64,000 bases of DNA from a virus, in IMG/VR virus record IMGVR_UViG_3300042301_004349, positions 1-64,000 of that record; one strand, given 5' to 3'. A model generated the notes under the pieces. That model did no database searches. It worked only from the letters and a program-made list of their open reading frames with translations, and was not told where the DNA came from. This document shows, piece after piece, positions 9,346-44,874 of this stretch. The translations under genes were made by a program, and so were the position numbers. Within the stretch, counting starts at the first letter, position 1. Each line of letters opens with the position of its first letter.

Positions 9346-9368
9346 GCCTATAAATATATACGATTAGC

Positions 9369-15428: not shown

Positions 15429-15593
15429 TTATTTAGTTACAGTTGTGTCAGCTGCGACTACAGTTGAGTCAGTTGCTACTGCAGAACTGTCTACTGCTAC
15501 TGCTGTTGAATCAGTTGTAGTTTCAGTTGTTCCTTTACCACCACAAGCTGTCAATACAGCTGCTACTGCGAAAATTGCGATTACTTTTTTCAT
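15429..15593 (-). CDS. small lipoprotein with repeated D-(S/T)-x motifs
   Basis: lipobox LTAC; DST, DSS, DST, DTT; own promoter 15628-15660. Confidence 0.8.
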   Translation of the reverse strand: MKKVIAIFAVAAVLTACGGKGTTETTTDSTAVAVDSSAVATDSTVVAADTTVTK

Positions 15594-15661
15594 TTGTTTG
15601 TTTGTTTGTTTAATAAATTTATTTGATGTAAACGTACGATAAATATTTTGACCGACCAACC

Positions 15662-17017
15662 CTATAATTGAAGTCTTGAACCTATTAGAAAGAAACTTAG
15701 TATTGGAGAGCCAGGTACCGTTGATAAACTGGCTTTATAATCAAGGTTAAATCCAAATCTTTTGCTCAATTTAAGACTATATCCTGTGCCCACCAAACTC
15801 ATTACATTATAATTCCAAGAACTTCCTAACCTACTGTTGTAGGTGTAAGGAGAAGCCATTAAGAACACTCCTGGAGATAAGGTTGATTTTCGGCTTATTT
15901 GATAAGGTTTAGTCCAAAATGCTGTAGCTGAAGACATCATCGAATATGAATAACTGTTTTCTGCTAACTTCAGTTTAATATTGATAATAGATAAGTTATA
16001 CCCGTATGTACCATATTTTGGATGAGGTACAACATGGGTGAAACCACCAAAAGTCATATGTGTACCTGCTACGTAAGCAACGGTATATGAATAGGCATCT
16101 ATTGATTTGAGTGCTCCGTTTTTAAAATTCATTGTGCTTTTATTCGCAGATAAAGCAAATGATTTAAAATCCATCCATATCATACTTGATACACCCCAGC
16201 TAGATTCTCCTGTAACTGATGCTTGAGACATACTTAATGATATGACTGGTGTAAATCCACCAGAAGAATTTTGAGCTACAGTTAAATCAGACCCCAACAT
16301 TATTGGGTTCATTTTAACTTCTTTTTTCTCCTCTTTCTTTTCCTCCTTTTTTTCTTCAGATTTAGACTCTTCTTTCTTTTCCTCTTTAGTTTCTGTTTTT
16401 GTTTCTTCTTTTTTCTCTTCAGTTTTAGTTTCTGTTTTTGATTCGCTGTTTTCGCTTTTGCTTTCTCCAGATGACTTTGATGAAGAGGAAGATCCAGAAG
16501 ATGAAGACGATTGGGATGATGAGGATGAAGATGAGGAAGATGACGATTGGGTAGATGAACCACTCGAAGTTGCTGCTCCTGAAGAAGCTGTTGATGCTCC
16601 TGAGGCTGCGGCTCCAGAAGCTGCTCCACTTGCTGCCCCTGAGGCTGCATTTGACGCGGCTGAACTTGCCGCTGATGATGCTGCTGAGCTTGCTGCTTGA
16701 GATGCGGCTTGTGATACTGTGTTTTGTACTGTCTGTGTTACTACGGGTGCTGCTACGGGACATGCTAATGAATTATAATAGGCGTAAGTTGTCTGGAGCC
16801 ATATTTGTAATTCTCCACTTGCTACTTGGGCGGGAGTAAATGATTTTATTTGCCCATAAAACGATACTATTGAATTTCCATTTACTATGGTAGTAGTAGC
16901 CGTTTTAACTTGACCTGAACATTTGTCAATAAAGGTTTGTGTATAGATTTGCCCTATCGCTTTTTGAGCGAATAGAAATATAACCAATATCAAAAAAGTC
17001 ACTAACCATTTTTTCAT
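15662..17017 (-). CDS. secreted protein: small N-domain, Ser/Ala- and Glu/Lys-rich linker, probable C-terminal outer-membrane beta-barrel
   Basis: signal peptide ending AIG-Q; low-complexity linker; about 210 aa of amphipathic strands ending IGSRLQL. Confidence 0.65.
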   Translation of the reverse strand: MKKWLVTFLILVIFLFAQKAIGQIYTQTFIDKCSGQVKTATTTIVNGNSIVSFYGQIKSFTPAQVASGELQIWLQTTYAYYNSLACPVAAPVVTQTVQNTVSQAASQAASSAASSAASSAASNAASGAASGAASGAAASGASTASSGAATSSGSSTQSSSSSSSSSSSQSSSSSGSSSSSKSSGESKSENSESKTETKTEEKKEETKTETKEEKKEESKSEEKKEEKKEEKKEVKMNPIMLGSDLTVAQNSSGGFTPVISLSMSQASVTGESSWGVSSMIWMDFKSFALSANKSTMNFKNGALKSIDAYSYTVAYVAGTHMTFGGFTHVVPHPKYGTYGYNLSIINIKLKLAENSYSYSMMSSATAFWTKPYQISRKSTLSPGVFLMASPYTYNSRLGSSWNYNVMSLVGTGYSLKLSKRFGFNLDYKASLSTVPGSPILSFFLIGSRLQL

Positions 17018-17046
17018 TATTTGTTTCTAGGTTACCTATAAATATA

Positions 17047-17072
17047 AAAAAAGGGAGTATTACCTCCCTTTT
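17047..17072 (-). terminator. intrinsic terminator, followed by class B promoter motif
   Basis: AAAAGGGAG-GTAATA-CTCCCTTTTTTT then ATATTTATA. Confidence 0.85.
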
Positions 17073-18267
17073 AATTTCCTTTAGATGGAAACCTAGTCCA
17101 TCCATTAACCCATATAGGTTTATCTAATTCAGGTATCACCACATCTATCTCTTTATTGCTCTTTGATAGTGCAAGAGTTTTCAATTGGTCATTTGTTAAG
17201 ATTGTAGTTGCTCTACTGATAAAGTTTAGTGTAGGGTTAAATGTTCCTACTGAATTGTTTTCAAATACTGAAGCTCCATCTTTGACGAATTGTGCAGTTT
17301 CATTACTTTCCAAACTTAAACCACCTTTCATCCAACCCCACACAACACTATTCTTCATTGTGAATTGTGTTGCTCTCCTAAATCTCAAACCTAAATTGTG
17401 GTTTGCTAACGCAGTAGACACATTCGGCCCAACTAAAACCATATTGTAAAGTTTTGGATGTGTATAAGGTTGTGCAGATGAGCCTGTTCCATCATTATCA
17501 CATTCTACACCATTTCCAGCATCACCATTATCTACGAATTGTGGGTCTCTCTTTGCTACACCATTTGTAATTGTTCCAGTGTATCCAAAATCAAAATCGA
17601 AATCATCATCTGCAGTAGCAAATGCATATAAGTTTCTAGGTGATACAGTTCCACCAAAGAATTCAAATGCATCATCATTAGCGTAGATAGTTTGAACATT
17701 CTCAATAATTGTACCACTACCAACCCCACCTAATGTTAGTGCGTTGATTTCAGAGTTTGGCATTGCCGCAATACCAGCATATTCAATTCTTACAAAACGA
17801 AGAACACCACTATTATCTAAATCGTTTGTTCCACCATAAGGTCTACCAATACCACCTTCGATTGTTGGTTCTGATGTTCTATTGGTTTTTGCTCTACCCA
17901 ATATTACAATTCCACCCCAATCACCAGGTGCCTTCTCACCATTTGCTCTACCTGATGTAAATACAATTGGTTTTGTTGCAGTTCCTTCCGCAATTATTTG
18001 TGCTCCTCTTTCGATACACAATGCTCCCTTTTCAGCAATATCGGATACAATTGTTGTACCAGGCTGAATGATAAGTTTTGCTCCATCGGTTACATATACA
18101 TAACCTTTCAATGTCCAAACTTTATCCGCAGTTAAAGTTGTTGTTGTATTGATGTTACCGGAAATTGTTGTTGATGTTGGGATGTTAATCGGCCCATCAC
18201 CACCACCCAATTCCTTTTCGCAACCCAATAACCCAAATGCTAAAATAGCTACTAATAGTTTTCTCAT
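17071..18267 (-). CDS. lipoprotein with beta-helix repeats, partner of TonB-dependent receptor
   Basis: lipobox LLGC; GDWGGIVILG, SGVLRFVRIEYAG, DDAFEFFGG, DDDFDFDFG; 4-nt overlap with receptor gene. Confidence 0.85.
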   Translation of the reverse strand: MRKLLVAILAFGLLGCEKELGGGDGPINIPTSTTISGNINTTTTLTADKVWTLKGYVYVTDGAKLIIQPGTTIVSDIAEKGALCIERGAQIIAEGTATKPIVFTSGRANGEKAPGDWGGIVILGRAKTNRTSEPTIEGGIGRPYGGTNDLDNSGVLRFVRIEYAGIAAMPNSEINALTLGGVGSGTIIENVQTIYANDDAFEFFGGTVSPRNLYAFATADDDFDFDFGYTGTITNGVAKRDPQFVDNGDAGNGVECDNDGTGSSAQPYTHPKLYNMVLVGPNVSTALANHNLGLRFRRATQFTMKNSVVWGWMKGGLSLESNETAQFVKDGASVFENNSVGTFNPTLNFISRATTILTNDQLKTLALSKSNKEIDVVIPELDKPIWVNGWTRFPSKGN

Positions 18268-20741
18268 AGATTCAAATTTAATGTTAATGAAATTGTTTGT
18301 TCGTTGTTTGTTTTTATTAGATTTCGGTTTTGTAACTTTTGATAATAGATTGATGGTTGCGCAAATACATCACCTATTGCCAATTTTAATTCTCCTTTTG
18401 GAAGTTTATGTAAGAATGTAATATCCAATACATCTCTACTATTTTCAAATATATTTGGATAACCCTGAAATCCTACTGCTGATATCCTATCCCCAACCCT
18501 ATTATATGTTATATTAAGAGTTTCATTCTTTTTATGAATGTTCACTCCACTATTTAGCACATAGTTTGATTGTCCCTGCAATTGTCTTTTTACGCCATTC
18601 ACTTCTACTTCGGAATTCATTATTGAAGCGTTTGTGTAAATGTCAAACCAATCATTTATTTTTTTACGGGCTTCCAACTCAACACCATATAGAATAGCTG
18701 AATTAGGGTTTGTGTAAGTTAATAATAGATTTGATGGAACTGAGCCATCAGCTACGATTTGTTCAATTGGTTTAATGAAGTTCTTACCAAATAGAGAAAG
18801 TGAAATGTTTTCACCTGCTTTTGGATACCATTCGTATTTAAGGTCTACATTATATATGTCAGATTTTTCTAACTTTGAGTTTCCTAATATTTGTGCGTTT
18901 CTAACAAAATCATAATAAGCAAAATTAGCTACTTCTCTAAACTCTGGTCTTGCTAATGTTTTACTTAATGAAAATCTATACTTTGTTTTTTCTTCGTTGT
19001 GTGAAAGGTTTATAGATGGTAATATATCCAAATACTCTCTATCTACATTTACTTTCTGTCCACTAAAATCTGCGGTTGATACATCGAATAAATTATACTC
19101 ACCTCTTAATCCAGTGTTTAATTTCCATTTACCAAATTCGGTATCATACATTGTATATAACGAACCCAAATCAAAATCAGCAGTATATCTATCAGTATTG
19201 TTTGTTATCTCATCTAACATATCAGTTGATAAGTTACGAAATATTCTAGCATTAAATCCTCTGATTCTTTTTAAGTATCCACCACCTACTTTAATATCTC
19301 CAAATTGTTTGTTGATGTTACCATTAAAAGAGTTCTCATCCATTACACTCCAAAAACGATATGTATCTCTCCACGCAGTTTGGTATGGTTCATCTACCCC
19401 CAATGATTTTGTAATTGGATTAACTCTATAATCGGGTTGTTCTCTGAAGGTGTATGTGTATCCTACATTGAAATCTAATGTTTTAACCTTACCATCTAAT
19501 TGAGAACTGATTATAACATTGTTGATATGATTTGATGCAGTAGATAAAACATTTTGCACATTATCAAAGTTATCACCAGTACGAGTTAGGTATGTATCAT
19601 CTGTTTGGTAGTTCACTAATGTTTTCCAGCTATATCTATTCTCACCCAAATAGGTTAAATTGAATAAACCATTTGTTGAAAATCGTTTTGTGAATAGAAC
19701 ATCTTTGTAATCGTATGCCAATTCGGTTGATGATTGATAATCCTTTCTATCAATGTTATTTATTGTGAATGAGTTCCTTACGGTAGAACTGAATAAAGAG
19801 TTCCATTTTCCTTTAACATACCCAAATGATAACCCTCCATTTAAATTCTGGGTGGATTGGATTGTTTCAGTTGATGGATTATTAAATAATTTGGTGTAAG
19901 CTCTCTTATCACCATTACCACTAATTCGGTATTTGTATGTGGACGGGAATGTGGAGGGGAAATCGGTAGCTTGAACTAACTTAAAATCTCTAAAAGTTGA
20001 AACCGAACCCCAACCACTTCCCGATGATATATTGAAAAAGTTATCGGATACTTCTTTTGTTGTTATTTGAACCAACCCACCACTCCAATCACCTGGCTGA
20101 TTTGCCGATGCTGATTTGGAGACTATAATGTTATCAATTAATGATGTTGGGATTATATCAAATGAAAATGCTCTCCTATCAGGTTCGGTTGATGGTAATT
20201 GTGTTTTATTTAGTAGAGCTGAATTGTATCTATCTGCTAATCCTCTTACTAATACAAACTTATCGTTTTGTATAGTTACCCCACTTACTCTTTTAAGTGC
20301 ATCACCAACATTTCTATCGGGAGTTTTCTTAATAAAATCAATTGATAATCCATCTGATACAACATTACTATTTCGTATTGTTCTTACAACTGCGGCTTCG
20401 GTTACCTTTTGAGAAACACTTCTTACAACAACTTCGGATAGTTGTTTTGCATCATCAGGAAATACAATATCAAATTCAGTGTCCTTATCAAATACTACTT
20501 CATTTGTATATTCAGTATATCCAACAAATGTAGATTTAATTTGGTATTTTCCTTCTTTTAATACGATAGAGTATTTCCCATCAGTATCTGATATTGTTGT
20601 GAAAATATCACCAGTTTGGTTTTTAAAAGAAATGTGAGAAAAGTAAAGTGTTTCCGATTTGGATTTTGTAACACCTTTGATTGTTACTTGCGAAAATAAT
20701 AGATTCGGCAAAAGTAACAATAGTAAAAAGAAACGATTCAT
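18264..20741 (-). CDS. TonB-dependent outer membrane receptor
   Basis: signal peptide + Q, carboxypeptidase-regulatory-like N-domain, LSEVVV, plug DALKRVSGVT...VRGLADRY, barrel FSLSKTLARPEFRE and DLKYEWYP. Confidence 0.93.
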   Translation of the reverse strand: MNRFFLLLLLLPNLLFSQVTIKGVTKSKSETLYFSHISFKNQTGDIFTTISDTDGKYSIVLKEGKYQIKSTFVGYTEYTNEVVFDKDTEFDIVFPDDAKQLSEVVVRSVSQKVTEAAVVRTIRNSNVVSDGLSIDFIKKTPDRNVGDALKRVSGVTIQNDKFVLVRGLADRYNSALLNKTQLPSTEPDRRAFSFDIIPTSLIDNIIVSKSASANQPGDWSGGLVQITTKEVSDNFFNISSGSGWGSVSTFRDFKLVQATDFPSTFPSTYKYRISGNGDKRAYTKLFNNPSTETIQSTQNLNGGLSFGYVKGKWNSLFSSTVRNSFTINNIDRKDYQSSTELAYDYKDVLFTKRFSTNGLFNLTYLGENRYSWKTLVNYQTDDTYLTRTGDNFDNVQNVLSTASNHINNVIISSQLDGKVKTLDFNVGYTYTFREQPDYRVNPITKSLGVDEPYQTAWRDTYRFWSVMDENSFNGNINKQFGDIKVGGGYLKRIRGFNARIFRNLSTDMLDEITNNTDRYTADFDLGSLYTMYDTEFGKWKLNTGLRGEYNLFDVSTADFSGQKVNVDREYLDILPSINLSHNEEKTKYRFSLSKTLARPEFREVANFAYYDFVRNAQILGNSKLEKSDIYNVDLKYEWYPKAGENISLSLFGKNFIKPIEQIVADGSVPSNLLLTYTNPNSAILYGVELEARKKINDWFDIYTNASIMNSEVEVNGVKRQLQGQSNYVLNSGVNIHKKNETLNITYNRVGDRISAVGFQGYPNIFENSRDVLDITFLHKLPKGELKLAIGDVFAQPSIYYQKLQNRNLIKTNNEQTISLTLNLNL

Positions 20742-20800
20742 AATTATCAAGTTAGTTCCCTAATAATTATAAATCGTTATTGTATTTTAATAGACTTTTA

Positions 20801-20838
20801 TATTAACAAATTATTAAGCTATTATGAACTAATATTAA
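20801..20838 (-). promoter_or_regulatory. putative OmpR/PhoB-family operator (11-bp periodic direct repeats)
   Basis: TTCATA-N5-TTAATA-N5-TTAATA at 20823/20812/20801, plus a fourth copy at 20833, upstream of the receptor. Confidence 0.4.
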
Positions 20839-21551
20839 TTTGGAAATATACCTTTTTTAACCATTCTATCTAAAATTCTAGCACAAGCAATATCTAGTGC
20901 TTTTTTAGTTGCTATAGAAATAGTTGATTGATTAAATTTCATTTCATCTACAGTTGCATCAGACAGGAATGTTAATTCTCTAGTTGTGGTTGCTTCACCT
21001 AACCCACTAGCAGCAAATACAACACCAGTTTCTGCATTGGTAAATCGAACTTGTAAACCTAAACGAGTTACCATCATATTCTTAACACCATCTTTAAGGT
21101 TGATGGTTTCATCTTCAGATACTGAGTAGTCATAACATTCAATTGTTACGAAGTACTCTGCTAGGTTAATTTTACCTCTACCATCTAATGGATTTTCAGC
21201 TATACCTGCTTGTGATGCTTGGAATTGCTTAACCATTCGGTTCTTAATCTCCGTTTTATCTTCGGTAAATTTGAAACGATTAAGGTTTTCTAGATATTCC
21301 ATTGAAATGTTAGCTACACCCAAACCTACTCTCTTTTCCTTTAATTCAGGGTACATTTCATACATTTCATCACTAATACCTGCTTTTAAGATTTGAATAG
21401 GAATTTGCTTACCTTCATAATCCATGAAGCGAGAAATATCAATTGCTGTTTCAAATGATGCTTTGTATTGTTCAGTTTTTGTTGAACCTACGTTTTGGGC
21501 ACTAACATTTATAGTTAGTAATAAACCCAATAATATTAATAAATTTTTCAT
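20835..21551 (-). CDS. secreted CsgG/TolB-N-fold protein
   Basis: signal peptide + Q; GLGVANISMEYLENLNRFKFTE, LGLQVRFTNAETGVVF..SGLGEA fit the CsgG-like pattern. Confidence 0.65.
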   Translation of the reverse strand: MKNLLILLGLLLTINVSAQNVGSTKTEQYKASFETAIDISRFMDYEGKQIPIQILKAGISDEMYEMYPELKEKRVGLGVANISMEYLENLNRFKFTEDKTEIKNRMVKQFQASQAGIAENPLDGRGKINLAEYFVTIECYDYSVSEDETINLKDGVKNMMVTRLGLQVRFTNAETGVVFAASGLGEATTTRELTFLSDATVDEMKFNQSTISIATKKALDIACARILDRMVKKGIFPN

Positions 21552-21566
21552 ATATAAATTAAGTTT

Positions 21567-21590
21567 AAAAAGGGAACCGAAGTTCCCTCT
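21567..21590 (-). terminator. intrinsic terminator
   Basis: AGGGAAC-TTCG-GTTCCCTTTT (UUCG loop). Confidence 0.85.
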
Positions 21591-21593
21591 TAA

Positions 21594-21842
21594 TTAAGCT
21601 TCTGTGTTATCTTTCTTTTTATGAGAGAATTTATCAAATGTATCTGCACCCATTCCTATACCTGTAATAATCATTACGGCATTTACTAACTCTGCTGATG
21701 GAGCAAAATCGGCATGTGAAAATGAGTTTAACATCATTGTAATACATAAGAACATAGCTCCTACAAATGCAATAACTGGTTTTACTGAAGTCGATCCTCT
21801 TTCATCTTTGAATAGATCGATAACCCATTGTTTGAAGTTCAT
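21594..21842 (-). CDS. small two-TM membrane protein
   Basis: two hydrophobic helices, basic tail. Confidence 0.75.
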   Translation of the reverse strand: MNFKQWVIDLFKDERGSTSVKPVIAFVGAMFLCITMMLNSFSHADFAPSAELVNAVMIITGIGMGADTFDKFSHKKKDNTEA

Positions 21843-21860
21843 ACTTTTAATTTTTAATGG

Positions 21861-22469
21861 TTAGTGAGATTCGTCGTAAGCGTCTTTTAATAGACCACAT
21901 TTTTGACACTCTAATTCTCCGTCATTATCTGAGTCGCCCCAAACATGTTCGCAGTATCTATGTGCTTTCATTTCGTGTTCTAATTTTAATTTAGCCATTT
22001 CTTGTTCATGTTCCTGAGCATCTTTAGCCATTGCTTGATCGTGTTCTTGTTGATCAGCGGCTAATTCGTGATTTTGTTTGTTTTCAACTACAGCTAAATC
22101 TCTAGCTGCTGCTGCACCTGCTACAAATGCATCTGGGATTAATGGGGTGAGTGGCTTGTTGGTTTCTTTCATATCATTAGTATGACCTAAAGTAACACCA
22201 TCTTCCTCATCCATTTTTTGTACTAACATTTTATCTTTGTCAGTATCGCTGAACCAGTAATCAATAATTTTACCATAACTACCAATGAAGGCACCTAACA
22301 ATAACATTAATAATTCTTTCCATGCTGCGGCCATTGGTGTTTGTCCCACAACAGCAGCAAAAATACCTGCTATTATCAAAATAAACCCACCTAATACCAT
22401 TGCTGTGATGTACCATCTTCTGGACATCATCTTGTTTAATAATTCTTTAAATCCTGTGTTTGGTTGCAT
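21861..22469 (-). CDS. two-TM membrane protein with EH repeats and C-terminal Cys/His metal-binding motif
   Basis: 2 TM, IIDYWFSD, QEHDQAMAK/QEHEQEMAK repeats, CEH...CQKC. Confidence 0.75.
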   Translation of the reverse strand: MQPNTGFKELLNKMMSRRWYITAMVLGGFILIIAGIFAAVVGQTPMAAAWKELLMLLLGAFIGSYGKIIDYWFSDTDKDKMLVQKMDEEDGVTLGHTNDMKETNKPLTPLIPDAFVAGAAAARDLAVVENKQNHELAADQQEHDQAMAKDAQEHEQEMAKLKLEHEMKAHRYCEHVWGDSDNDGELECQKCGLLKDAYDESH

Positions 22470-22488
22470 ACTTAATTTTGTTTATAGG

Positions 22489-22809
22489 TTACCACTTTGG
22501 TGCTTCTTCTTTAAATTCATCACCTTCTTTTTTCTTTTCAGGCTTAGCTGCGGGTTGAGCTGCTGGTTTTTCAATTACTTTTTCTCTAATCACAGTAGTT
22601 CCACCACCTGCTGATTGAGACTGTTGATTCGAGTTTTGAATGTTGATTACTGGAGCGGCTTGTTGTACTGGAGCTGGTTCATCACCACCTGTTAATTGGG
22701 TTACTCCCCAAGTACCTAAACCCATAATTGCTGTTGTAGCAACACCAATAATGGTTTTCTTTAATCCGGATAAAGTTCCGTCATTTGCATTTTCTACTTC
22801 TTCTGACAT
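22489..22809 (-). CDS. single-TM protein with Q/P/A-rich tail
   Basis: one hydrophobic helix; VINIQNSNQQSQS. Confidence 0.75.
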   Translation of the reverse strand: MSEEVENANDGTLSGLKKTIIGVATTAIMGLGTWGVTQLTGGDEPAPVQQAAPVINIQNSNQQSQSAGGGTTVIREKVIEKPAAQPAAKPEKKKEGDEFKEEAPKW

Positions 22810-22820
22810 TTTATTTAAAT

Positions 22821-23198
22821 TTATAGTTTGTTAAAGTCTGTTATTCCTAATTGTATTCCTTTAGAATCATATAATCCAATTCTATAAGCCGATGATGGTA
22901 ATGCTGATGTATATACCTTTAGTATATTATCACCTGCTTTTGCATTTATCGTCTCTTTTGATACAACTCTATTAGAAATATCAAAAATCTTAATTGTAAC
23001 TGGTTGAGCGGTTTCTAATTTAACATTCATAGCAACTTCAGTTGTTACGAATGCCGATTCTAATTTAAGTCCAACCGCATTTTGTATTTGTAGTTCTTTC
23101 TTAACTTCTACAATGGGCTCAATCAAATCATCTTTATAACATCCAGATAACAATGTTGTTACTAATACTATTGTAAGTATTCTTTTCATCGTGTTCAT
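22821..23198 (-). CDS. lipoprotein with T9SS-CTD-like/Ig-like domain
   Basis: lipobox LSGC-YKDD; VTIKIFDISNRVV...TSALPSSAYRIGL. Confidence 0.65.
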   Translation of the reverse strand: MNTMKRILTIVLVTTLLSGCYKDDLIEPIVEVKKELQIQNAVGLKLESAFVTTEVAMNVKLETAQPVTIKIFDISNRVVSKETINAKAGDNILKVYTSALPSSAYRIGLYDSKGIQLGITDFNKL

Positions 23199-23200
23199 TT

Positions 23201-23545
23201 TTAATTAATTTTAATGGTTGTTTTAGCTATTTGAGTTTTAGACCCATCTTCTAATACTAAGTATAAATATTGGGGTTGTATCGAACTCGTGTAAATTTTC
23301 TTTATGTTTTCACCCGTTTTACCATTGAACCTTTCTCTACTAATGACTTGGTCATTTACTTTATCAATTAAGGTTAATGTATAAATACCGTTTGATGGTA
23401 AATCAAAATATATAGATTGCCCATCAGTTACTAGGCTTTCAGACACACTAAATATCTTTTGTACAGGTGGTGGTGTTGGTTCAATTTCCATTTTGGTACA
23501 TCCCCACAATAACACCACAAATATGAATACTATTTTTTTCATCAT
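23201..23545 (-). CDS. lipoprotein, paralogue of 22821..23198
   Basis: lipobox LWGC; VISRE..NGKTGENIKKIYTSSI versus VVSKE..NAKAGDNILKVYTSAL. Confidence 0.7.
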   Translation of the reverse strand: MMKKIVFIFVVLLWGCTKMEIEPTPPPVQKIFSVSESLVTDGQSIYFDLPSNGIYTLTLIDKVNDQVISRERFNGKTGENIKKIYTSSIQPQYLYLVLEDGSKTQIAKTTIKIN

Positions 23546-25836
23546 TTGATTTTTACTTTTAATTGCCTACCAGCTTTATTAACCGCATCCGTTGTTGATA
23601 TAGATGTTAACCCTAATATATCAGTTATGTTGTTTATTGAGGTGAATATAATTTTATATTCTGTTGTTTTATCTAATATATCTCCACTTGTTATTAAAGA
23701 GCCTATATTAATAAAATTACCTCTATCAGTTCCAAAATTAGTAGGATTACCCTTTGTAGTAAATTCTACTTTTTCAAATTTTAATTTAGTATTATCATAA
23801 TTTAATTTAAATTGTGTTCCAACTAACTCTTGCTGTAATGGATCTACTGATAGTGTGATTATGACTTTGTTATTTATTAATTCTCCCATAGCTATTACAT
23901 TTATTTCATTTGTAATAGAATTATTCACCATACTCATACTTCTAATCGAATTACTACCCATATTGTTTATGCTTTGCTGAGCTGAATGGGATAGATTTAC
24001 ATCACCTAACCAAGTTACACTTATATTGTATGTGTTATTTAATCCACTCAATGTAAATGGTATTAGATTGCGAGTTGAATTAAATTGAGTACCCCAATTT
24101 GATGTTGTTATAGCATCATAGTCTGATTTATTATATAGCTTTAACAAATTAGTTAACGATGTTGATTGTGTTAATGATTGAGTACCTGTTAGGTGTTGTA
24201 AGAGTTTGTATGTATCACTTTCGTTGAATATACCATTACCATCTACATCTGCATTTAGATATTGTATACCATTTGTTAATCCCATACCACTTTGATTTCC
24301 AAATAACCCACCATCAGCTAATTCTTTAAATGCTAAATATACATCTGATACACCAACTATATTATTATATAATGTATTTAGTTCTGTTTGATTTGAATGT
24401 ATTAATTCTATTCCGTGTGGTTTATATACCATTATTGGTGAGAAAGAAAACTCCGATTGTAATCCCCAAAAGAACCCAGCTCGTCTTATATTAGCCGTAA
24501 ATGATGAACCTGCGAAATTAAATTCGGTTGGTGTAGAAATCCAATATGCTGCCCAAGTACCATCATCCCACTGATATGTTACAGGCCCATCCCATAAATC
24601 AAATAATTTTAAATGTGTAACATTGTTTGAAGAGATATTTGTACCTGCAAACTCTCTTTTATCAATTAGAATTTGGTATCGTTGGTTTTGGGGTTCATAA
24701 TCATATACTACACACCACTCAACTTGTCCAGCGCTTGTATTTGCTCTAACTCCCCCACTACTAACTCTAGCCGTATCTAATAAGGTTGTCAAATCCACTT
24801 TACCTAATCCACTTAATTGTCTAGCAGTTCCGTTTACTACATTCCAGTTATTATTTGTAAATGTATATCCTTTTGCTGTAAATTTAGTTTCATCTACATT
24901 AGTTCCAAAATCAATATTGAATGATGCCCTTAATACTTCTCCGTTTGAATGAGTTACACTATTAGTATAGAATTCAGTAAATGTTGCATCATCAGGATTA
25001 GTCCAAGTTCCATATTCAATTACATAAGGATTGGACCAATTATTTGATAAATCGTTCCAACTTGATACCCCATTCCATTTTGCCACTGCATAGTTCTCAC
25101 TACCATTACTACCATTTGGTTCACCAGGTGCCCAGTTATTATATACACCAGGAATATTTCCATTAGTTTGTCCATTTTGGGTTTTCATTGTTATACCCTT
25201 TTCAGGCCCAGCATCAATTTTCCAAGTCCCATCAACAACCTCATCGGTTGCCGCAAACCATACATTTGTTGCAGGAACATTAGCAAATATAAAAGCATCT
25301 TCGGAAGCTGATGTTATTGTTACTAGATAACCTTGCTGTCCTTTGAATGTAGTTAATAATGATCTAGATCTTGCGTTTGTATATGTGGTTCTTTCATTAG
25401 TTGCAGTTATAGGTCTATAAAAGTGTCCATTCACACCATTGTAAAAATAACCAACGGGATTTACAGTTGCTGCTACTGATAATTGAACATTACCAACTAT
25501 CGAACCTGTGTTTATTTTTAATGATGCTAATGCAGTATTAATATCTGCCATTGTTCCCAATACCACCAAACGAGTTTTATTACCTGATAGAGTAAATCCA
25601 CTTGCAGCAATTAATCCTCTCGTTTCATTAAGATAAAATGTAGTATTTGTTGATGGATTTATTAAACTGATTGATGCTAATAAAGTAGATGTTGCACTAA
25701 ATCCACTTAATACGAATCCACTACCATCTTGTCCGTTTGTAGATGGTATAAAAGATTTAGAGTCCGGAGCAGATACACTCTGTCCGAACCCTAAAAATGA
25801 TATAAATAAAAATAATGTAACTAATAAGTGTTTCAT
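23542..25836 (-). CDS. secreted C-type lectin / dockerin-like / cohesin-like protein
   Basis: signal + Q; NGHFY...YLVTITS...WAPGEPN...WND; ADVDGNGIFNESDTYKLL; VGTQFKLNYDNTKL. Confidence 0.8.
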   Translation of the reverse strand: MKHLLVTLFLFISFLGFGQSVSAPDSKSFIPSTNGQDGSGFVLSGFSATSTLLASISLINPSTNTTFYLNETRGLIAASGFTLSGNKTRLVVLGTMADINTALASLKINTGSIVGNVQLSVAATVNPVGYFYNGVNGHFYRPITATNERTTYTNARSRSLLTTFKGQQGYLVTITSASEDAFIFANVPATNVWFAATDEVVDGTWKIDAGPEKGITMKTQNGQTNGNIPGVYNNWAPGEPNGSNGSENYAVAKWNGVSSWNDLSNNWSNPYVIEYGTWTNPDDATFTEFYTNSVTHSNGEVLRASFNIDFGTNVDETKFTAKGYTFTNNNWNVVNGTARQLSGLGKVDLTTLLDTARVSSGGVRANTSAGQVEWCVVYDYEPQNQRYQILIDKREFAGTNISSNNVTHLKLFDLWDGPVTYQWDDGTWAAYWISTPTEFNFAGSSFTANIRRAGFFWGLQSEFSFSPIMVYKPHGIELIHSNQTELNTLYNNIVGVSDVYLAFKELADGGLFGNQSGMGLTNGIQYLNADVDGNGIFNESDTYKLLQHLTGTQSLTQSTSLTNLLKLYNKSDYDAITTSNWGTQFNSTRNLIPFTLSGLNNTYNISVTWLGDVNLSHSAQQSINNMGSNSIRSMSMVNNSITNEINVIAMGELINNKVIITLSVDPLQQELVGTQFKLNYDNTKLKFEKVEFTTKGNPTNFGTDRGNFINIGSLITSGDILDKTTEYKIIFTSINNITDILGLTSISTTDAVNKAGRQLKVKIK

Positions 25837-27485
25837 TATTCTATGATTAAGTCTATTTTGTTTCCTTTAGCATCTACTGCATCTGATAAAATAAAGAAGA
25901 ATAAACCTGCTGTATTTGTTAAAGTTGTCTTTGGTGTGAATATTAATTTGTATGGAGTACCAACTTTGATTCTTGCTGTTTTTAATTGATCAATAGAACC
26001 AAATGTTAATCTACCACTATTGTGTGTTGAGAAGTTAGTAATTGTGCTTCCAGCATCAAATATAATATTATCTAATGTTAATTTAGATTCATCATAATTC
26101 ATTATAACTTGCAAACCAGCTAATTCTGCTTTAGTTAAAGTTGTAGTTAATATAACTTTACCATTTTCTAAAGTAGACGTTACACTTAATTTAGCAGTTT
26201 CTACAGCTTCTGTTTGATAAGCCATTATAGATGGTACACTCATAGATCTTTTTAAATTCACTTCACCATTGATTGAGTTAGTATACAAACCACTACTGAT
26301 TCTAGTTGCAATTACTGCAGGATCTGATGAATGTGACCAGTTTAAATCACCACCCCATGCAAATACAGCATGAACTTCTTTTATTGGAGTATCAATTAAA
26401 ACTTTATTCTTAACTACCCCATCCAACCAACTTTGGTTTAATAAACCACTCTGCCATCTTACTGATGTTGAGGTTGATGTTGGGATAGAGGCAATAGTTG
26501 ACATATTTTGTCCCATTACATGAGCAAATAAAGCATAGGAATCGGATTCATTAAATACATTATCATTTAATGTTACGTTACCAACTTTAGTTTCTAAATT
26601 AGGATAAGTGAAGAAATTTGGTGTACCCCCAATATCAGTTTGTGAATGACCTAAGAAGGCTTTATATGCGTCTGATACAGTTACGATATTGTTCATCCAA
26701 GCTTTAGTCATTGTTGGTCCTACGAATACACCAACTGAGTCTCCAACTTTAACTTGTGTTGTAAATAATGCTTCACCACTACCATCTAATGGTAATTGGG
26801 CAATTGGTTGTTGTGCCCAATCAATAGTTCCATCAACTTTTAATTTCATTAACTGGACATTGTGGTCAGTAATAGTATATCCTTGTGGGAATAATACTTT
26901 AACTTTAAATTGCGATGTATTACCAGTTACGTTTGTTAATGATAAATTTGTAGCACTACGAGTAATAGGTGTAATGTTAGCAGAAGCATCATTAACGGCA
27001 TAAGCTAAATCTAATTTATGGATATCGTTATAAGTGTTCTGGTCTTTCAATACAAATTTTTGAGTTGCTATATCACCATTGATTGAAGCATCAGTTCTTT
27101 GAACTGTTAATTGTCCAACATTCCAATCGTTGTTTACTGCATATCCCCAAGGAGTAGCTTGATATTGTCCAGATAAACTAGTAACAGCAACATTTGCTGT
27201 TGGAGTGAATGCGTAGTTATTCCAACCTGTAAAGAATGTTTGGACTGATGTTCCTTGTGAGAACACCGTACTATTTGGTACCATAGCTAAAGCCTTATTA
27301 TTGAATGAATATCTCATCCAAAAATAACGAGGTGTTGTTGTACCTCTAGCTATTGTGTATTTTACAGTTAAGGTATCACCAACCTGATAAGGTGGGGCTG
27401 GTGTTACAGATTGTGATACGGAAATTTGACTAAATGATGTTAAAGATGTTAGGAATATTCCTAAAAATAATAATAATTTTTTCAT
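25836..27485 (-). CDS. secreted cohesin-like / dockerin-like / cohesin-like protein
   Basis: signal + Q; VGDTLTVKY..RYSFNNKAL; VTVSDAY..GNVTLNDNVFNESDSY..GDLNWS; LAGLQVIMNYDESKL. Confidence 0.75.
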   Translation of the reverse strand: MKKLLLFLGIFLTSLTSFSQISVSQSVTPAPPYQVGDTLTVKYTIARGTTTPRYFWMRYSFNNKALAMVPNSTVFSQGTSVQTFFTGWNNYAFTPTANVAVTSLSGQYQATPWGYAVNNDWNVGQLTVQRTDASINGDIATQKFVLKDQNTYNDIHKLDLAYAVNDASANITPITRSATNLSLTNVTGNTSQFKVKVLFPQGYTITDHNVQLMKLKVDGTIDWAQQPIAQLPLDGSGEALFTTQVKVGDSVGVFVGPTMTKAWMNNIVTVSDAYKAFLGHSQTDIGGTPNFFTYPNLETKVGNVTLNDNVFNESDSYALFAHVMGQNMSTIASIPTSTSTSVRWQSGLLNQSWLDGVVKNKVLIDTPIKEVHAVFAWGGDLNWSHSSDPAVIATRISSGLYTNSINGEVNLKRSMSVPSIMAYQTEAVETAKLSVTSTLENGKVILTTTLTKAELAGLQVIMNYDESKLTLDNIIFDAGSTITNFSTHNSGRLTFGSIDQLKTARIKVGTPYKLIFTPKTTLTNTAGLFFFILSDAVDAKGNKIDLIIE

Positions 27486-27489
27486 AATG

Positions 27490-28140
27490 TTATTTTTCAA
27501 ATAATTTTGTGACTAATTTATCACAACCTTTTTTGAGAGCATTACTTAGTGAAGTTTGGTTGAATTTACCACCTTCATCCACAAGTAAAGTAGACATTGA
27601 AATTTCAGATGAAGATTCTTCAACAATTATTTCTTTTTCTTTTATCCCATCTTTATATAGGATTCCTTTTAAACGAATGATTACTTCTTCTTCACCTTTA
27701 TGAAAAACTGAAATGTTTTTCTTGGTAGTTAGTACATCTAGATAAATAATTTCAACACGTAATTTATTTTCAGCCTCTGATGATATATTGTATCCTTTAT
27801 CTTGTAAATATTCTTCTAATACGTTTTTAACGCCAAATTCTAAATTACGGTTACCTGCTAATTTACCAACAACTACTTTGTTAGTAACTTTTTCAACATA
27901 GATATGTTCATCTGCGTTGTACCAAATGTTACCTGGGGAGTTTTTGAATGTACCGTCGATTTTATGACTAATTGCATTAGACATTTGTAAATTTTCTTCA
28001 TAAGATTTAAAGAAGTGGCTATATACAAAATATAATTGTACGAATAATGCCGCTATTACAAATGATCCTAGTAAGTATAACACACCTTGCGCAAACACAT
28101 CACGCAGATTGGTGGCCAGGGTAATGGCTTTTTGTTTCAT
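27490..28140 (-). CDS. membrane-anchored CsgG/LptE-like fold protein, paralogue of 20835..21551
   Basis: N-terminal TM; LEFGVKNVLEEYL and KFNQTSLSNALKKG align with the 238-aa protein. Confidence 0.6.
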   Translation of the reverse strand: MKQKAITLATNLRDVFAQGVLYLLGSFVIAALFVQLYFVYSHFFKSYEENLQMSNAISHKIDGTFKNSPGNIWYNADEHIYVEKVTNKVVVGKLAGNRNLEFGVKNVLEEYLQDKGYNISSEAENKLRVEIIYLDVLTTKKNISVFHKGEEEVIIRLKGILYKDGIKEKEIIVEESSSEISMSTLLVDEGGKFNQTSLSNALKKGCDKLVTKLFEK

Positions 28141-28166: not shown

Positions 28167-28176
28167 TATAAATATG
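28167..28176 (-). promoter_or_regulatory. class B promoter motif ATATTTATA (probable late promoter) heading the surface-protein operon
   Basis: same motif just upstream of many minus-strand starts (approx. 9349, 12525, 17037, 32421, 32993, 37733, 43795, 48252, 57880). Confidence 0.6.
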
Positions 28177-28177
28177 C

Positions 28178-28208
28178 AAAAAGAAAGGCAACCATTTCTG
28201 GTTGCCTT
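28178..28208 (-). terminator. intrinsic terminator after tmRNA
   Basis: AAGGCAACCA-GAAA-TGGTTGCCTT-TCTTTTT. Confidence 0.9.
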
Positions 28209-28217
28209 AGCAAATTG

Positions 28218-28594
28218 TGGAGGTGAAGGGAGTCGAACCCTTGTCCAAATACGGATTTAATAAATCTCGTTCACAAGCTTAGTTCGTTTTTCTAAACTGA
28301 ACAAAATATTCGGTTGGTTCTTCACCATCGGCAACCGATAAACAATGGGTGATTCGATTTCGGGTTCAATCACTTTTCCACCTTGGTACACATTCTATTT
28401 TAAGTCCCACGATGTGTGCGGGAGGGATTAGGCAGCTACTGCGTAATCAGCACCAACGAATGCCATAGCATCTTCGAAGGTCATTGTAGATAATTCTACG
28501 TCATTTATTGTTCGATAGGTATTTACGGATTTCCATCTAACCCGGCTTGCATCAACTCACCAACTCATCGCACCTGTCAAAACCAGGCACCCCC
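28218..28594 (-). ncRNA. ssrA: tmRNA
   Basis: 5' GGGGGTGCCTGGTTTTGAC, 3' GGGTTCGACTCCCTTCACCTCCA, G3.U70 pair; tag ORF 28428..28502 encodes DVELSTMTFEDAMAFVGADYAVAA*. Confidence 0.95.
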
Positions 28595-32975: not shown

Positions 32976-33027
32976 AATTTATAATTTTCTCTTATAAATA
33001 TAAGTCCAAACTATTGCTTAAACAAAT

Positions 33028-43791: not shown

Positions 43792-43811
43792 AAATATAAA
43801 TATATACGAGC

Positions 43812-44535: not shown

Positions 44536-44874
44536 TTATTTCCAAAATATTTGAATTAAAATTATAACAACTCCTAGGCTTAAACAAGTAAGTGTTTTAG
44601 GAGTTAGAGGCTCATCAAACATATAATGAGACATGATTGTGAATACTGCTACTCCAATACCAAATCCAATTAAACGTGAAGGCCATATAGCACCATCATA
44701 TGCTGCTACAAAATATTTTACAGAATACATAAATAATAGCGAAATAGGTACTCCCATACATGCTACTAATAATGTATTGTTTTTAAACCATTCATATTTA
44801 ATTTGTCCTTGTAATTGGAGAAATGTAATGATTTGAGCTAACAGACCAAATATAAAACCTTTGAATAAATTCAT
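44536..44874 (-). CDS. four-TM membrane protein (SMR/DMT-like)
   Basis: four hydrophobic helices, FDEPLT. Confidence 0.65.
   Translation of the reverse strand: MNLFKGFIFGLLAQIITFLQLQGQIKYEWFKNNTLLVACMGVPISLLFMYSVKYFVAAYDGAIWPSRLIGFGIGVAVFTIMSHYMFDEPLTPKTLTCLSLGVVIILIQIFWK

Follow-up and report, generated by a model that had tools for sequence, protein, structure and literature searches.

Comparative Analysis of a Twelve-Gene Envelope Block in a Bacteroidota Phage Points to a Conserved Ten-Gene Module Split by a Transporter–Lipoprotein Cassette

Introduction

Genes for host envelope proteins have been reported from several phages, and the closest of these systems provide the frame for the locus analyzed here, a run of twelve consecutive minus-strand open reading frames (ORFs), g01 (27490–28140) to g12 (15662–17017), in a 64,000-nucleotide stretch of the IMG/VR record IMGVR_UViG_3300042301_004349. 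This stretch, referred to below as the window, makes up the opening 64 kb of a complete lake virus record of 171,171 bp with direct terminal repeats. Judged by gene order and gene content in related phages, the block is two independent units, in which ten envelope genes (g01–g09 and g12, module A) are split by a mobile cassette of two genes (g10–g11, module B) encoding a TonB-dependent transporter and a lipoprotein. Module A is taken, as a best guess, to encode an envelope lectin–cohesin scaffold, and module B is likely to be a phosphorus-scavenging helper built on an outer-membrane importer of the kind that hosts use in phosphate starvation; a probability of roughly 0.55 is assigned to this explanation as a whole.

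The nearest precedents for module A come from T4-like aquatic phages. CsgG/CsgF genes occur in pelagimyophages and the methylophage Melnitz, where fibre subunits are missing and the role of the genes is a matter of debate (PMC7029224, PMC9004378). The present phage shares with them the CsgG-fold envelope protein and the absence of curli fibre subunits, whereas in those phages the CsgG family is recognizable and accompanied by a predicted barrel and a CsgF partner; the likeness of g09 is at fold level only, and g09 stands within a ten-gene module with cohesin folds and a lectin. PelC, LptE, and FlgT, which belong to the same CsgG/TolB-N-like fold group, are periplasmic or outer-membrane-associated proteins that work with barrels; g09 aligns with them at Z 8–9.6, lower than with CsgG and again at the level of the fold, and in most phages it is directly followed by the barrel-like g12. 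The third comparison is with cohesins (PDB 6kgf, 1ohz, 1g1k, 2xdh, and 2jh2), on which two domains of g02 superpose with a root-mean-square deviation (rmsd) of 2.0–2.6 Å over 117–134 residues, and a loop–helix in g03 resembles the dockerin F-hand. The differences are considerable, since identity is only 8–18%, the folds are predicted, a second canonical F-hand and a Dockerin profile match are missing, and module A belongs to a phage of a Gram-negative host and carries a lectin in place of enzymes.

For module B, the best-known parallel is found in cyanophages, which carry the Pho-regulon helper genes pstS, phoA, and phoH. The common element is the carriage of host phosphate-starvation genes by phages, probably raising the phosphorus supply during infection; the cyanophage products are a periplasmic binding protein or a phosphatase, whereas module B supplies an outer-membrane TonB-dependent importer and a surface lipoprotein in Bacteroidota phages. 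A phage-encoded TonB-dependent receptor is also present in the marine megaphage Mar_Mega_1, with a probable Bacteroidota host, where the SusC-like protein lacks a partner and was read as a carbohydrate importer (PMC9723777); g10 differs in having a partner lipoprotein, a Pho-type context, and an upstream repeat that points to phosphorus. The closest cellular match in architecture is that of two gene pairs of Flavobacterium johnsoniae, namely PUSIV (Fjoh_0545, a TonB-dependent transporter, and Fjoh_0546, the lipoprotein FII, in the phoBR operon) and PUSIII (Fjoh_3857 and Fjoh_3856, the latter FI, in a second cluster), both strongly and specifically induced by phosphate depletion, with the lipoproteins as major exoproteins (Lidbury et al. 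2020, PMC8115612). In these pairs, as in module B, a transporter composed of CarbopepD_reg_2, Plug, and OMP_b-brl_3 domains is followed by a lipoprotein with a pectin-lyase fold; the phage version differs in being a bare cassette with two repeat units upstream and a phage-specific hairpin at the start codon, and the phosphate-gene context (PitA, phosphatases, an OprP-type porin, polyphosphate kinase, and sensor kinases) is that of the bacterial g10–g11 homologues. No description of a phage cohesin/lectin module or of a phage Pho-type transporter–lipoprotein pair was found in the literature.

Gene Content and Conservation of the Block

The twelve genes are separated or joined by gaps and overlaps of at most 83 nt, and an export or membrane signal was recognized in all twelve products by sequence reading and a hydropathy scan. 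In g02, g03, g09, g10, and g12, a signal peptide is followed by a glutamine that is invariant or nearly invariant across the orthologue alignments, in keeping with the "Q-rule" of Bacteroidota signal peptidase I substrates; g04, g05, and g11 have lipoboxes (LWGC, LSGC, and LLGC, respectively), and clear membrane helices occur in g01, g07, and g08, with a weaker hydrophobic stretch in g06. The original prediction, made from the sequence of the window, had described an uninterrupted run of envelope genes unlike virion, lysis, or replication genes, and both statements stand: every ORF lies where it was placed, with one of the three kinds of signal, and a PHROGs search of the ten proteins g01–g10 assigned none of them to any family, virion, lysis, and replication families included. 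A megablast comparison of the block with 50,697 phage records gave no match.

The conservation of the block was followed in two scans of IMG/VR, one with g10 (120 contigs with a relative at 64–96% identity) and one with g02 (215 contigs, recovered with a narrower g02 alignment as the query, the diverse one being too variable), and 80 loci were fetched from each. In the g10-anchored loci, the g10–g11 pair is kept in 71 of 80, usually with a 4-nt overlap, and the other ten genes occur in only about 20. The g02-anchored loci give the complementary picture, with the order g01-g02-g03-g04-g05-g06-g07-(g08)-g09-g12 maintained wherever the flank suffices; among the 64 that reach g04, g09 is present in 58 and g12 in 51, with g10 in only 13 and g11 in 7. 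The loci most closely related to the block, L162–L164, are 92–99% identical to it in module A and have no g10–g11, and the stop of g09 and the start of g12 overlap there as TAATG. The extra DNA of the present phage, about 3.8 kb, lies exactly at this g09/g12 junction, and in other phages the pair has different neighbourhoods, adjoining thyA or replication genes or standing elsewhere. The cassette and its parts, all on the minus strand, are as follows.

About 17021–20834, minus strand: cassette of module B and its own control elements, inserted after the stop of g09 and before the start of g12 (bounds approximate, by comparison with L162–L164)
20801–20817, minus strand: Pho-box-like direct repeat TTAATA-N5-TTAATA with an 11-bp period, 60–76 nt 5′ of the g10 ATG, the sole match in the 64-kb window
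20732–20778, minus strand: hairpin in the leader, in whose 20-bp stem the start codon of g10 (ATG at 20741) is paired, −21.4 kcal/mol, z −8
18264–20750, minus strand: g10, module B, TonB-dependent transporter (Pfam, TIGR01782)
17071–18267, minus strand: g11, module B, 398-residue lipoprotein whose start overlaps the g10 stop by 4 nt (PF28492 Beta_helix_4, pectate-lyase-like beta-helix)
17049–17072, minus strand: terminator hairpin after g11
17037–17045, minus strand: ATATTTATA promoter-like motif, 20 nt 5′ of g12

Since g10–g11 are found in only about 13 of the 64 module A loci, stand alone in many phages, and are inserted exactly at a junction, the block does not behave as one twelve-gene machine, contrary to the original proposal. 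Co-conservation across phages applies to the ten genes of module A, whose order holds in about 58 of these 64 loci, and fails for g10–g11, and the original list of parts was correspondingly incomplete, as it had missed that g10 is a full TonB-dependent receptor and g11 a beta-helix lipoprotein, together forming one separate cassette.

Module B and Its Bacterial Relatives

The g10 protein combines a CarbopepD_reg_2 domain with Plug (PF07715, 4.2e-8) and OMP_b-brl_3 (PF14905, 2.2e-25) domains, the last two above their cut-offs, and matches TIGR01782 (TonB-Xanth-Caul) at 5.7e-52, below the cut-off of 310 bits of that model; a TonB-box-like sequence, SEVVVRS, was read by eye at residues ~105–111. 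Phage g10 proteins come in two lengths, of ~825 residues with an N-terminal CarboxypepD_reg-like domain and of ~750 residues without it (L021, L026, L035–L040, L046–L050, and others).

Bacterial relatives of the pair were collected by a prokaryote scan with g11, limited to one genome per species, which gave more than 444 relatives, and the best 80 loci were used. A g10 homologue lies directly 5′ of the g11 homologue in 72 of these 80, all from Bacteroidota except one metagenome-assembled genome labelled otherwise. Among these best 80, the closest cellular relatives are those of Aquirufa and related freshwater Cytophagales, with 71% identity for g11 and 63% for g10, and in Aquirufa the pair is followed by an enzyme of the alkaline-phosphatase superfamily and a PHO4/PitA phosphate transporter. 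The 256 bacterial neighbour ORFs are rich in phosphate-related families, with matches to PHO4 (9), Metalloenzyme/Phosphodiest (8), PhoU_div (11), Metallophos (9), Porin_O_P (4), polyphosphate kinase (2), pyrophosphatase (2), and histidine (sensor) kinase (7), as well as an acyltransferase–GNAT fusion (11) that is read as OlsF-like.

A maximum-likelihood tree of g11 gathers the 58 phage sequences into a single group (SH-aLRT 95), sister to ten Aquirufa-type sequences (96), and both groups share a long branch apart from the other Bacteroidota, which suggests a single origin for the phage pair. The possibility that phosphate genes travel with the pair in phages was considered and dropped, as none were found around it in phage locus L010. 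In many other phages, the pair adjoins, in either orientation, the gene of a 112-residue protein that has roughly four hydrophobic segments and matches no family (L010:13725–14072 and others); in the window, this gene is present at 44536–44874 on the minus strand, 24 kb from g10–g11.

Control Elements Upstream of g10

Of 60 distinct phage g10 upstream regions, 24 have the strict form of the direct repeat, placed at −80 to −90 of the called start, compared with 0.76% of background windows, and the bacterial homologues have 3–6 TAACA units upstream at an exact 11-bp spacing. PhoB binding sites in other bacteria are tandem repeats with an 11-bp period, and the array may accordingly be regarded as a candidate Bacteroidota Pho box. 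Taken together, the phage transporter genes are preceded by two or three, and the bacterial ones by as many as six, TTAAYA or TAACA hexamers with this period (window 20801–20817, and L086, L105, L117, L122, and L124).

The second element is the hairpin that closes on the g10 start codon. Its loop, GGGAACTAAC, is conserved, and a similar hairpin is predicted in most of the 23 phage loci that were folded (mean z −4.1), being weak or absent in about six of them. The stems vary between loci yet stay complementary, as seen by eye in the pairs CGATT/AATCG, CCTCAT/ATGAGG, and GTCTCAT/ATGAGAC, and the first codons of the signal peptide therefore appear to co-vary with the 5′ arm. When the g10 leaders were aligned with MAFFT, indels kept RNAalifold from predicting a structure, and the hairpin is seen when sequences are folded singly. 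Inspection by eye found no such hairpin upstream of the Aquirufa homologues, and it may represent a translational switch added by the phages.

Cohesin Folds and Lectin in Module A

The genes of module A, all on the minus strand, are listed here in their order of reading.

27490–28140, minus strand: g01, 216 residues (Pfam, alignment, hydropathy)
25836–27500, minus strand: g02, exported, probable start at 27485 (AlphaFold2 model, Foldseek, VIA)
23542–25836, minus strand: g03, exported (Pfam, alignments, cohesin module comparison)
23201–23545, minus strand: g04, 114-residue lipoprotein, paralogue of g05, a small beta-sandwich with the pattern of a type IX secretion system (T9SS) C-terminal domain
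22821–23198, minus strand: g05, 125-residue lipoprotein with weak DUF3244 (E 0.0011) and Por_Secre_tail (E 0.014) matches
22489–22809, minus strand: g06, 106 residues, one hydrophobic segment and a Pro/Ala/Lys-rich tail
21861–22469, minus strand: g07, 202-residue membrane protein with a coiled coil and a Cys-rich C-terminus
21594–21842, minus strand: g08, 82-residue membrane protein, detectable in 26 of 80 loci
20835–21551, minus strand: g09, exported, 238 residues (AlphaFold2, Foldseek, VIA)
15662–17017, minus strand: g12, exported (alignment, weak bacterial match)

The AlphaFold2 model of g02, built on 48 diverse sequences, has a predicted local distance difference test (pLDDT) score of 89.3 and comprises an N-terminal cohesin-fold domain (residues ~22–193), a beta domain, a helical, dockerin-like region of calcium-loop type (262–400), a disordered linker, and a C-terminal cohesin-fold domain (434–554). 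Its top PDB matches in Foldseek are cohesins (E 5.6e-7), and in VIA the C-terminal domain aligns with cohesins at Z 14.2–14.7 (rmsd 2.0–2.1 Å, 117–120 residues) and the N-terminal one at Z 12–13.2 (rmsd 2.3–2.6 Å, ~130 residues). The cohesin-like modules that had been predicted are thus recovered as two cohesin-fold domains in g02. At the level of sequence profiles, the Pfam Cohesin model (PF00963) does not match g02, and the C-terminal 132 residues of g03 give E 4.6e-4 and 20.8 bits, short of the cut-off of 24.1. The protein belongs to a small family (196 representatives in 1.84 billion proteins), and a search of 401 Bacteroidota genomes gave no full-length g02 relative.

The g03 protein has an N-terminal domain, a C-type lectin at residues 166–272, a variable middle part, and then a dockerin-like plus cohesin C-terminal module as in g02. 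The lectin, also part of the original prediction, is supported, with a Lectin_C match (PF00059, E 1.9e-5, 25.8 bits against a cut-off of 22.6) and with E239-P240-N241 and W260-N261-D262 nearly invariant in an alignment of 17 rows; EPN together with WND forms the calcium/sugar site typical of lectins with mannose- or GlcNAc-type binding. Some g03 orthologues (L026:2589–5234, L035:5210–7870, L038:2065–4644, and L043:2769–5354) have an extra insert of ~100 residues, whose motifs GTNIYTNDS...AAVHAG look, by eye only, like an LCCL domain.

The two proteins are paralogues that have about 280 C-terminal residues in common at 25–30% identity, and in the whole phage genome the cohesin module was found only in g02 and g03, no virion gene carrying it. 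The dockerin half of the predicted module fared less well. A single canonical DxDxNGxxxxxD calcium loop, DVDGNGIFNESD, followed by the helix TYKLLQHL, is present in g03, and the second repeat of g03 and both repeats of g02 are degenerate relative to the dockerin F-hand. The C-terminal module was also considered as a T9SS sorting domain, a candidate rejected because profile support is lacking and the fold is that of a cohesin; Pfam and NCBIfam found neither a T9SS Por_Secre_tail nor a type B domain in g02, g03, or g12. The dockerin-like middle of g02 (profile positions 232–410) matches the last 125–155 residues of giant Bacteroidota proteins (L242:1489–1959 and L249:1495–1875, both minus strand) with frames of 1650–4700 residues, one of them with RTX-like calcium repeats just upstream, and this region may correspond to an uncatalogued C-terminal domain of giant surface proteins.

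CsgG- and YajG-Like Proteins

The best match of the g09 model in Foldseek is CsgG (E 1.4e-7), and VIA aligns the two at Z 11.6–12.8 over 157–174 residues, compared with Z 8–9.6 for Cj1090c, PelC, FlgT, and LptE; a protein-language-model search (Atlas features 0.94) likewise led to CsgG/LpoB clusters. The predicted structure resembles the periplasmic body of CsgG, not evidently its channel. Profile comparison by hhalign to Bacteroidota CsgG is weak for both g09 (probability 18%) and g01 (0.9%), and no full-length relative of g09 was found in five Bacteroidota genomes, four of them Aquirufa.

The g01 protein consists of an N-terminal membrane anchor and a conserved periplasmic domain of ~135 residues, with a short YajG/Lipoprotein_16 match (PF03923, 3.7e-6, 27.2 bits) just above the cut-off of 25. 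The hhalign comparison of g01 with g09 has low probability and brings out a common C-terminal helix motif, KFNQ..KK, alone. The pair of CsgG-like proteins that had been expected is partly supported: the fold of g09 agrees with it, g09 lacks the lipid anchor and probably the membrane hairpins, and g01 is linked to it by the short YajG match and the shared motif. Among orthologues of g01 (L028, L054, and L080), some have a long anchored N-terminal extension and others a short, cleavable signal peptide that ends in Gln, and the conserved domain would therefore work in the periplasm tethered or free.

Small Lipoproteins, Membrane Proteins, and g12

Among the smaller products, the T9SS-CTD-like beta-sandwich pattern is common to the paralogues g04 and g05, and g05 has the residues YKDD after the lipobox Cys, resembling the Bacteroidota surface-export signal. 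The possibility that g07 is an i-spanin was rejected, as its two membrane helices and Cys-rich C-terminus argue for a cytoplasmic tail.

The g12 protein begins with a signal peptide and Gln, followed by a domain of ~80 residues with two invariant Cys, a linker of ~140 residues rich in Ala/Ser and then Lys/Glu, and a C-terminal domain of ~215 residues with alternating hydrophobic strands and a barrel-like end; it weakly matches (E 1.6e-6) a 283-residue Bacteroidota protein resembling an outer-membrane protein. Identity as PorP/SprF was discarded, since neither g12 nor 34 orthologues match PF11751 and the weak bacterial matches differ from the PorP/SprF genes of the same genomes. Profile searches against PDB sequences gave no meaningful match for g09, g01, g02, g12 (whole and C-terminal domain), or g04/g05.

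Proposed Functions

The domain architecture, the bacterial phosphate neighbours, the kinship with Aquirufa, and the upstream 11-bp repeat together make it likely that module B is a phosphorus-scavenging helper, that is, a host-type outer-membrane importer of phosphate starvation. In a phosphorus-starved infected cell, host PhoB would drive g10–g11 from the upstream repeat, the products would be placed by the host Sec, Lol, and BAM machineries, and host TonB-ExbBD would energize the import of an unspecified phosphorus compound, which host periplasmic phosphatases and PitA would pass on into phage DNA synthesis. With module B, the phosphate helpers known from cyanophages would then be joined by an energy-coupled outer-membrane importer, and the range of such helpers would take in heterotrophic lake bacteria. 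The module comes with a candidate host control site; its presence or absence among near-identical phages makes its fitness effect directly testable.

Module A looks like a phage-specific envelope module of ten genes, because no full-length relatives were found of g02 in the 401 genomes or of g09 in the five genomes mentioned above. The case for a single multi-protein envelope complex is evenly balanced; it is favoured by the envelope targeting of all ten products, the conserved gene order, and the scaffold-like make-up of two of the proteins, which between them offer sockets, a calcium loop, and a head for sugar binding. In the scaffold proposed as a best guess, g02 and g03 would act as a calcium-dependent lectin–cohesin framework that binds each other and/or the small lipoproteins and recognizes a glycan, held or placed by g01 and g09 (YajG- and CsgG-like), the lipoproteins g04 and g05, and the linker-barrel protein g12. 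Module A is among the most widespread unexplained gene sets of large freshwater Bacteroidota phages, with a g02 relative in at least 215 IMG/VR contigs, and its cohesin folds, its CsgG-like fold, and its lectin, which looks functional, make up a combination not found in the phage literature. If true, its assembly on or in the host envelope would be a new viral route to the remodelling of the host surface and a source of natural compact cohesin modules from a Gram-negative setting.

Several observations weigh against the explanation advanced here. For module B, the strict repeat is confined to 24 of the 60 phage upstream regions, the likeness to the F. johnsoniae pairs is one of architecture as listed in PMC8115612 and not of sequence alignment, and that paper gives no definition of a Bacteroidota Pho box; host-to-phage transfer is the simpler reading of the g11 tree, which is unrooted. 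For module A, isolated segments of g02 and g03 give no Pfam match to the Dockerin profile even at E 10. The g09 model has a pLDDT of 60, and neither Pfam nor NCBIfam matches g09 (or g01) to CsgG PF03783; the N-terminus of g09 has a signal peptidase I site between VSA and QN, with an invariant Gln and no lipobox, and its long hairpin at 133–172, rich in charged residues (SVSEDETINLKDGVKN, from the sequence and the low-confidence model), is probably not membrane-spanning. The outer-membrane barrel of g12 is deduced from a sequence pattern and one weak match, and the supposed cargo may stay in the periplasm, as no outer-membrane route was identified.

Alternative Explanations

A bolder version of the scaffold would place it outside the cell. 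Module A would then be a self-assembling surface organelle, in which CsgG/YajG-like and linker-barrel proteins place a calcium-dependent cohesin/dockerin-like scaffold on the infected Bacteroidota cell and glue cells or particles together before lysis, with g02 as a two-socket connector and g03 as a lectin tip binding glycans; if true, this would be a viral counterpart of a cellulosome-type scaffold, for adhesion and not catalysis. External display as an adhesin, which the original prediction had put forward as an adhesive fibre or lattice that aggregates cells or particles, seems doubtful, since Pfam and NCBIfam show no T9SS tail in g02 and g03, and g09 probably has no pore features, and the full organelle is slightly more doubtful still.

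On a par with that organelle, and thus unlikely, is a role of module A in superinfection exclusion or receptor masking, in which a coat would block other phages and spare the loss of progeny on debris. Small phage lipoproteins that block receptors are known, such as Llp of T5, and the envelope targeting of all products, the position of the module outside the structural region, and the conserved sugar-binding EPN/WND lectin would fit such a role; ten conserved genes, however, far exceed the needs of the known exclusion systems.

For module B, the competing view is that g10–g11 serve in SusC-like carbohydrate uptake, or as a decoy or altered receptor changing the cell surface, and it appears improbable. 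Many members of the TonB-Xanth-Caul subfamily, which g10 matches, take up sugars, g11 has a pectate-lyase-like fold, and carbohydrate uptake was the role given to the SusC-like receptor of the marine megaphage (PMC9723777). The genomic context speaks otherwise, as 140 downstream neighbours yielded one SusD-like and one glycoside hydrolase match against many phosphate-related ones, the bacterial neighbours are phosphate genes, the 11-bp-period repeat lies upstream, and the same architecture in F. johnsoniae is induced by phosphate depletion only.

Still less weight is given to an action of module A from the periplasm, on lysis timing, outer-membrane permeability, or the uptake of macromolecules. 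Such roles have been proposed for T4-like marine phages that carry CsgG-like genes without fibre subunits (PMC9004378), and the holin-like size of the small membrane proteins g06–g08 and the CsgG-like fold of g09 are compatible with them. Against this, g09 probably lacks the membrane hairpins for a pore, Pfam and PHROGs found no lysin in the block, and the lectin and cohesin proteins would be left unexplained.

One integrated twelve-gene secretion and assembly machine, in which the TonB-dependent barrel and the lipoprotein help to display a lectin–cohesin fibre, would account for the co-orientation and tight packing of the genes and for the occurrence of both modules within 10 kb in about 20 of the 80 g10-anchored loci; it is nevertheless very unlikely, as the nearest relatives L162–L164 have a complete module A without g10–g11, most phages with the pair have it alone, bacteria have it in Pho-type contexts, and it has its own repeat and terminator and is inserted where g09 and g12 otherwise overlap.

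Phage particles commonly bear lectin and Ig-like decoration proteins, and g02 and g03 might be accessories that virions acquire during lysis and not structures of the infected cell. This notion can be set aside as the least probable of all, since both have cleavable signal peptides followed by Gln, are sited among early/replication-region genes, and have no structural match in PHROGs nor a virion gene with a matching module.

Genome Context and Transcription Signals

The source of the window is a T4-like phage of Bacteroidota, and both modules lie in the replication/tRNA part of its genome. The window has a G+C content of ~32%, with nearly all genes on the minus strand, and encodes a family B DNA polymerase, ribonucleotide reductase, a DnaB-like helicase, and a RecA/UvsX-like protein, together with GroEL, DNA ligase, thymidylate synthase, a tmRNA, and five tRNAs. 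The features that precede the block are as follows.

28217–28594: tmRNA gene, followed by a terminator hairpin
28185–28208, minus strand: intrinsic terminator hairpin after the tmRNA gene
28167–28175, minus strand: ATATTTATA promoter-like motif, 27 nt 5′ of g01 (motif count in the window)

The block thus begins, as originally described, right after the tmRNA terminator, with the hairpin at 28208–28185 and the g01 start at 28140, and the promoter predicted ahead of g01 is consistent with the motif at 28167–28175 and its bias toward the coding strand. The motif has 12 copies in the window, 11 of them on the coding strand, compared with 5.1 expected by chance; the sites include 28167–28175, 17037–17045, 9349–9357, 32993–33001, and 43795–43803, often directly after a terminator hairpin and 20–30 nt ahead of a gene start, and ATATTTATA probably represents a phage promoter class. 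Between g08 and g09, a GC-rich hairpin, GGGAAC TTCG GTTCCC, followed by T5 (21572–21587, minus strand) may split module A into two transcripts. Directly 3′ of g12, a gene at 15429–15659 on the minus strand encodes a 76-residue product with the lipobox LTAC and adjoins g12 in 12 of 80 related loci, and may thus belong to the block as a thirteenth envelope gene. Elsewhere in the phage genome, far from the block, there is a PhoH-family gene (G000:C1:112692–113285, minus strand, E 2.3e-51).

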